A stretch of DNA of 1,126 nucleotides, from sequence record AF039877.1; one strand, written 5' to 3'. Origin of the DNA: a phage. Of this stretch, positions 1 through 1,126 are shown one piece after another. The notes beneath the pieces were generated by a model. That model saw only the letters and a list, made by a program, of their open reading frames with translations. It had not been told where the DNA came from and did no database searches. Numbering within the stretch: the first letter of the stretch is position 1; each line of letters opens with the position of its first letter. A program made the translations under genes and the position numbers.

Positions 1-25
1 CTAACCTGTGNACACACTAGATATT

Positions 26-499
26 ATGGCATGTAAAGATTTTGAATGTAGGCTCAACAACNCTCGTAAGATTTTTGGCAAGGCTCGTATTCCCGCTGAT
101 AATCTAATTAATACACTAATCGATGCTGGTTATAAGCTTGTGAAGACTGAGGTTAACCGTCCTAGTACTCCTGTGACTANNCGAGATCCGTGGCAATCGG
201 GGCCAATTACANTGTGGAACAGTCCTAAAATAACGTCGGATTTGCACAATGTTCCATGCGGTGGCGTTATAGAAAATAANNCCTCATATCGAGTTGGTGA
301 AGATTATGGACCTTCTGCACAATTGANACATACTCAAGAAGCTTTTGAATCTGACATGAAAAGCGTAGCACCTGTGGATACTGAAGGTTTTAAAAGTCCC
401 ATCTATGTTACTCACTTTAATAATCTTAGGCCTGGGAGTATAAATGATACTATCCTTGAAGCACTAGGAGCTGTTATTAATGAGAATAANAAGGATTAA
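26..499 (+). CDS. hypothetical protein (157 aa from ATG-26; 163 aa if GTG-8 is the start)
   Basis: Frame 2 is open from 5 to the TAA at 497-499, preceded by an in-frame TAA at 2-4, so the gene starts inside the window. About 164 stop-free codons is unlikely by chance in AT-rich DNA. None of the 9 N-containing codons in this frame (nac, nct, ann, ntg, aan, ncc, ana, aan) can be a stop. No Shine-Dalgarno motif precedes either GTG-8 or ATG-26, so the start is uncertain. The product has diverse composition and 3 Cys (CKDFEC, VPCGG), with no motif I recognise. Confidence 0.5.
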   Translation: MACKDFECRLNNXRKIFGKARIPADNLINTLIDAGYKLVKTEVNRPSTPVTXRDPWQSGPITXWNSPKITSDLHNVPCGGVIENXXSYRVGEDYGPSAQLXHTQEAFESDMKSVAPVDTEGFKSPIYVTHFNNLRPGSINDTILEALGAVINENXKD

Positions 500-716
500 T
501 AATTCCTAATACATGAGCNNCNACGGAGGCTCTAAAATAAAAGGAAGGTCATCCAGACNTTANAAAATGAGAGATAANTAATGTANNAACCTTTAAAGAT
601 ANACNTAAGACAAANTGCNTGGTAAAANAAAACCTAAAGAGAACATTAATGTTCGTAATGCCAANGTATTACCATTTCCAGAANTGTTTCAGGAAGAAAA
701 AGATAAGTTAGCATTT
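500..716. other. non-coding spacer, stop-dense in all three + frames, low sequence quality
   Basis: Stops at 500-502, 507-509, 514-516, 533-535, 538-540, 568-570, 575-577, 579-581, 606-608, 623-625, 635-637, 647-649 and 709-711 close every + frame between 500 and 608. Thirteen of the 30 Ns lie in 519-628. Two purine tracts, GGAGG (525-529) and AAGGAAGG (541-548), have no start codon at SD spacing. The 3' boundary may be 608 rather than 716 if the downstream ORF starts earlier. Confidence 0.4.
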
Positions 717-941
717 ATGGTTGATGCCCTTCTAGGGCTAAATGGAGGTTTATATTCCTCACTCAATATTAATGAGAAACGTTTAGTAGAGATGTTTTGT
801 AAGCGTTATCAAGTTANTTCAAAGGGCAATTCTTATAAAGAAGGTGAGAAAGCATTCACAGTCTTAAAGATTAGCGCCATATGCACATCGTTTCTTAGTT
901 TATGGGTTACAGATGGAATACTTCACCATCCCATCATTTAG
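717..941 (+). CDS. hypothetical small protein, 74 aa (frame open from 609, so the true start may be upstream)
   Basis: Frame-0 ORF from ATG 717 to TAG 939-941. The same frame is stop-free back to 609 and contains two NTG codons (615-617, 684-686) that could be starts if N is A, G or T. The only N codon inside 717-941 (ant, 816-818) cannot be a stop. AGGAAG at 691-696 is about 20 nt upstream of ATG-717, too far for a classic SD. The C-terminal ~20 residues are moderately hydrophobic (ISAICTSFLSLWVTDGIL). No motif recognised. Confidence 0.35.
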   Translation: MVDALLGLNGGLYSSLNINEKRLVEMFCKRYQVXSKGNSYKEGEKAFTVLKISAICTSFLSLWVTDGILHHPII

Positions 942-967
942 CTAACCTCTGCGATAGAGTCTTCTAA

Positions 968-1126
968 AGCATCCGCNNTGCAGNTAAGCAGTCTGAAATT
1001 AATGCTAAGCAATCAGAGTTAAATGCCAAAGATTCTGAGAATGAGGCAGAAATTTCCGCAACATCTTCTCAGCAATCTGCAANTCAGTCTGCCTCCTCTG
1101 CTACTGCTTCTGCTANTGGTGCTAAA
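968..1126 (+). CDS. partial CDS (3' end runs off the window; no canonical start found): phage tail-fibre-like protein segment with xAxxSxx heptad repeats
   Basis: Frame 2 is open from the codon after TAA 965-967 to the window end (53 codons): SIRXAXKQSEINAKQSELNAKDSENEAEISATSSQQSAXQSASSATASAXGAK. Heptads run NAKQSEL / NAKDSEN / EAEISAT / SSQQSAX / QSASSAT with A/S at position 2 and S at position 5. No in-frame ATG, GTG or TTG lies between 968 and the repeats. N codons in this frame (nnt, gnt, ant, ant) cannot be stops. The tail-fibre label rests on recalled similarity to the lambda Stf and T7 gp17 shaft repeats, not on a search. Confidence 0.45.
980..1042 (+). repeat. three imperfect tandem 21-nt units, each encoding one heptad (AXKQSEI, NAKQSEL, NAKDSEN)
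   Basis: Units at 980-1000, 1001-1021 and 1022-1042. Units 2 and 3 match at 13 of 21 positions by hand alignment, with the GCn-AAr-nnn-TCn-GAr core conserved. Unit 1 matches unit 2 at about 12 of 20 unambiguous positions. Confidence 0.5.

Follow-up and report, generated by a model that had tools for sequence, protein, structure and literature searches.

A start-less, frame-changing tail fibre reading frame in coliphage T5 record AF039877.1 is very probably an artefact of a poor-quality, chimeric clone sequence

Results

We analyzed a window of 1,126 nt (the whole stretch of DNA in sequence record AF039877.1), near whose end a tail fibre-like reading frame lacks a start codon and appears to change frame at a patch of uncalled bases. 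The window is coliphage T5 DNA represented by a poor-quality read, and the start-less, frame-changing fibre gene is very probably an artefact of an error-ridden sequence of a chimeric T5 shotgun clone, in which an internal fragment of the tail fibre gene ltf, encoding pb1, directly follows unrelated T5 early-region DNA. The apparent gene structure is not a real biological feature; the ltf stretch of the window departs from the known gene by sequencing and cloning errors only. The features that bear on this reading are collected in Table 1.

Table 1. Features of the 1,126-nt window of AF039877.1 (positions in window coordinates)
Feature	Position	Strand	Basis or identity
Piece 1, T5 early-region DNA	1..943	+	megablast to four T5 records; NC_005859 12399->11463
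TAG stop in ltf frame, made by the junction	939..941	+	T5 codon is GAG (Glu42); piece 1 supplies the T at 939
AGCT junction, 4 nt common to both pieces	940..943	.	AluI site
Piece 2, T5 ltf nt 125-312	940..1126	+	blastn to ltf of AM084272, AY692264 and AY587007; 96.3% including Ns
TAA, frame 2	965..967	+	plain out-of-frame stop; the ltf codons here are TCT AAA (Ser-Lys)
Missing-base site, ltf frame 0 -> frame 2	975..978	+	alignment with relatives; restored translation
NTG, once proposed as start	978..980	+	CTG across two Ala codons (GCT GCT GCA GCT), mid-ORF

The window joins two non-adjacent segments of T5

The first and larger piece of the window opens with the 3' portion of T5.019 (window 1-499); beyond an intergenic spacer it takes in the 5' 357 nt of T5.018 (ATG at 581), which AY692264 annotates as '33.8 kDa early protein'. 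The piece is colinear with NC_005859 12399-11463 within the T5.019 and T5.018 region (NC_005859 10936-12510). Alignment of this piece with T5 gave 904 matches, 11 mismatches, 22 Ns and six extra bases, corresponding to 98.8% identity (904/915) without Ns. Besides the extra bases and Ns, the window differs from T5.019/T5.018 in that T5.018 is truncated by the junction, which interrupts the gene at its codon 119.

The second piece is an internal gene fragment of 187 nt that covers the codons for pb1 residues 43-104, as well as 2 nt of codon 42, and is colinear with ltf of AM084272, AY587007 and AY692264 (ltf nucleotides are numbered here according to the CDS in AM084272). The pb1 protein is a homotrimer of 1396 aa that forms the L-shaped tail fibre and binds polymannose O-antigen (PMC4690869). 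Compared with T5 ltf, the window lacks the ATG and codons 1-41, is one base short at the N patch, and contains five Ns and one mismatch, with 181 of the 182 called bases identical. This sole called-base mismatch, an A->G change at 1118 that would convert AGT to GGT (S102G), lies 2 nt from the N at 1116 and 9 nt from the end of the read, and is probably a base-calling error.

In T5 both pieces are found on one strand but about 73.5 kb apart (NC_005859 11463-12399 vs. ~85744-85931), and their ends coincide with AluI cut sites (AG^CT) in three of four cases, with the fourth within 1 nt. The T5 sequence at the end of piece 1 is CATCATTTAG^CTCTTTCC (CTCTTT... after the cut), and at the start of piece 2 it is TGCTGCAGAG^CTAACCTCTGCG (TGCAGAG^CTAACC...). 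The start of the window likewise falls exactly on a cut (ATCTATGAAG^CTAACC...), while at the window end the site is located 1 nt beyond the last base (GCTAAAG^CTGC...), so that the window stops at ..GCTAAA rather than ..GCTAAAG. Given the local T5 AGCT density of 0.0042 per base, three exact coincidences of this kind have a chance probability of ~7e-8. A six-cutter enzyme was rejected for these ends, as their contexts (AAGCTA, TAGCTC, GAGCTA and AAGCTG) have only AGCT in common; CviJI, or another relaxed RG^CY cutter, would account for the fragment ends equally well. Within the insert, AGCT sites at 135, 340 and 469, as well as an AGNT at 982, were left uncut, which indicates a partial digest.

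We therefore infer in vitro ligation of AluI fragments as the origin of the junction. The ltf fragment would have been blunt-ligated, AG^CT to AG^CT, onto an unrelated partial-AluI fragment from T5.019/T5.018, a step that would remove the ATG of ltf along with the rest of the gene's first 124 nt, regenerate the AluI site, and create an in-frame TAG. The window resembles AluI blunt-end shotgun chimeras in comprising two non-adjacent fragments that are bounded by AG^CT and regenerate AGCT at the joint; it differs from a typical one in that the insert is without its last base, the final G of the expected blunt end, which we assume was trimmed together with the vector.

Searches for the junction outside this record returned no match in the collections covered: an exact scan with the 24-nt junction gave 0 matches in viral, genome and metagenome contig collections, a 211-nt junction-spanning megablast query matched no plasmid or E. 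coli genome, and in the phage megablast none of the 146 matching records was reported to continue without a break beyond window position 943. No vector sequence was found within the window, and in a literature search no paper came up that describes shotgun cloning of T5 with AluI.

We also noted that the sequence following the AluI cut is nearly alike at the two fragment starts, reading AG^CTAACCTTTGC in T5 for piece 1 (window 1-13) and AG^CTAACCTCTGC for piece 2 (window 940-954), with identity at 8 of the 9 bases that follow AGCT (post-hoc chance ~1e-4). Ligation gives no account of this likeness, which may be a coincidence. A PCR-primer origin for the CTAACCT common to both piece starts was considered and rejected, as the 3' ends of the pieces carry no complementary sequence.

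The frame switch coincides with a missing base in ltf

The first-pass annotation of this DNA, made from the letters alone, had described the reading frames accurately. On translation of 939-1126 in the three forward frames, the TAA and the Ns at 977, 978 and 984 stand where it placed them; frame 2 after the TAA reads SIRXAXKQSEINAKQSELNAKDSENEAEISATSSQQSA... with no ATG, GTG or TTG to the end of the window; and frame 0 from 942 reads *LTSAIESSKAS-(GCN)-(NTG)-Q. Its proposal that a one-base indel, and not biology, separates the two frames, to be checked by alignment with related genomes, was borne out when the ltf region of the window was aligned with eight relatives, four of them T5 records and the others T5-like phages (GEC_vB_N5, SP01, 3sent1 and VAH1). 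All eight sequences carry one extra base at the patch relative to the window and read through it, and in all eight the N-terminus of pb1 is uninterrupted (MAITKIILQQ...SKAS(AA/GP)AAKQSEINAK...), with 93-100% protein identity over residues 1-104. At the patch the window reads CCGC-NNTGCAG, compared with CCGCTGC[T/A]GCAG in seven of the eight relatives and CCGGCCCTGCAG in NC_005859.

Addition of a single base after 976 joins frame 0 to frame 2, as the first-pass annotation had anticipated, and yields LTSAIESSKASAXAXKQSEINAK...SAXGAK in a single frame, colinear with residues 43-104 of T5 pb1 (LTSAIESSKASAAAAKQSEINAK...SANSAK). The single continuous pb1 frame is thus broken in the window as written and is restored by one base. 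The loss itself was correctly foreseen but its position was not: whereas the base had been placed between 981 and 985, the alignment locates it at 975-978, in or beside the NN pair. Frame 2 becomes the ltf frame only beyond the missing base, and the TAA that appeared to precede the fibre-like reading frame is therefore simply an out-of-frame stop.

Because the eight relatives are one base longer and a single base restores the pb1 frame, the switch of frame reflects the deletion of one base, almost certainly a base-calling error. In the proposed course of events, the base would have been lost during base calling beside two Ns, shifting ltf from frame 0 to frame 2. A hairpin or band compression as the cause of the lost base was unsupported: when either strand of the patch was folded as DNA, in both T5 versions, no unusual hairpin emerged and the energies were no better than those of shuffled sequences (z 0.2-0.5).

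The true start of ltf is absent from the window

The missing start codon has a separate origin from the frame switch. In T5 the base matching window 940 is preceded by 124 nt of ltf that begin with the annotated ATG, which thus lies outside the window; the start and the N-terminal residues 1-41 (MAITKIILQQ...) are absent, and T5.018 DNA precedes 940 in their place. There is accordingly no ltf start in the window, since the 5' end of the gene has been swapped at the junction for T5 early-region DNA.

Two starts had been suggested for the fibre-like gene. The extension of a longer gene back to 942 holds only within the limits of the window, but the true start was lost at the junction, which had been overlooked; just upstream, frame 0 is closed by a TAG that is itself a product of the joining of two unrelated T5 fragments. 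The other suggestion, initiation at the NTG, fails, as the corresponding T5 codon letters, which were to be checked for ATG, are CTG and span two alanine codons. Neither the frame break nor an alternative start is conserved: all eight relatives are single-frame and begin at the canonical ATG 124 nt upstream.

Sequencing errors extend across the whole window

Against the T5 references, the window contains 30 Ns, 12 mismatches and seven indels (six extra bases and one missing), and these errors cluster at 1-62 and 490-750. We take such a distribution to reflect two end reads of one insert meeting mid-insert. Frame tracing placed extra bases at 586, 590, 605, 619 and 877, which distribute T5.018 over three frames in the window, and the apparent 74-aa ORF at 717-941 is likewise an artefact of this splitting. 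Since T5.018 is also broken into three frames by extra bases, frame breaks are a general property of the read underlying this window.

Discussion

Three other explanations were weighed against the chimeric, error-prone clone. T5 can do without its L-shaped fibres in the laboratory, and mutants that lack them are known; the one-base deficit could in principle represent a real ltf frameshift in the cloned T5 stock, with the chimeric junction still a cloning artefact. Such a frameshift would leave the window exactly one base short of all relatives, as observed, and the patch does seem to be either variable or error-prone, NC_005859 having GGCCC where the other T5 records have GCTGC. We nonetheless consider it improbable, given that the gap adjoins two uncalled bases, a third N following six bases later, and that a read whose six other indels and 30 Ns also break T5.018 offers nothing to mark this particular indel as real. 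Far weaker still is the case for initiation at a non-canonical codon such as the NTG, or for a programmed frameshift, either of which we regard as barely conceivable: only the geometry of the open reading frames speaks for it, while the homologous bases form a CTG within Ala-Ala-Ala-Ala, an annotated ATG is conserved 124 nt upstream of the match to 940, and the eight relatives are single-frame with 93-100% protein identity over residues 1-104. The alignments already refute this explanation.

The junction, for its part, might have arisen in vivo, as a T5 rearrangement in which AGCT served as the microhomology for illegitimate recombination; the 4-nt overlap at the junction and the odd likeness of AGCTAACCTTTGC (window start) and AGCTAACCTCTGC (junction) could be cited in favour of this. 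A passage on the same strand from 85.9 kb to 11.46 kb would, however, presuppose that ~74 kb had been tandemly duplicated or that a concatemer had suffered a deletion across the terminal repeat. Judging from the coordinates, a ~74-kb duplication would be oversize for a capsid that packages the 121.75-kb genome, and neither event would be compatible with a packaged genome of that size. Recombination would also leave unexplained why the outer ends of both pieces lie at AGCT, and the junction occurs in none of the phage, contig, plasmid and E. coli collections searched. A natural origin of the junction is thus unlikely, and an in vivo rearrangement of this specific kind very improbable. That the junction is a real recombination product in a T5 population, e.g., a defective rearranged genome, or that a genuine ltf frameshift produced a fibre-less variant, retains only slight probability, and the residual alternatives of a genuine frameshift mutant or a genuine rearrangement remain improbable even when taken jointly.

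With the chimeric clone as the preferred explanation, the importance of the finding is one of quality control only: record AF039877.1 is unfit for inferring an unusual start, a frameshift or the gene order of T5 ltf. More broadly, a start-less open reading frame beside a patch of Ns can mask a second artefact, in this case a chimeric junction just 35 bases off.

Additional observations on the T5 sequences

The spacer between T5.019 and T5.018 (window 513-562) contains two hairpins, GAGCCTC-TACG-GAGGCTC and AAGGTC..GACCTT; on the opposite strand a T-run follows the latter, which scores as terminator-like on the minus strand. NC_005859 is annotated without a terminator in this spacer, and an Rfam scan of the window gave no RNA family match. 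Beneath window 1-943, the annotation of AY587007 includes 'direct repeat D copy 10'.

Finally, the T5 references themselves differ within ltf. At codons 42-43 and 54-55 (window 941-942 and 975-979), NC_005859 / AY543070 has ACGT and GGCCC, encoding Asp-Val and Gly-Pro, whereas the three other T5 records and the four T5-like phages have AGCT and GCTGC, encoding Glu-Leu and Ala-Ala. The window agrees with the AGCT version at the former position, and the second difference falls exactly on its N patch. The ACGT and GGCCC variants in the RefSeq T5 ltf are probably two small reference errors.
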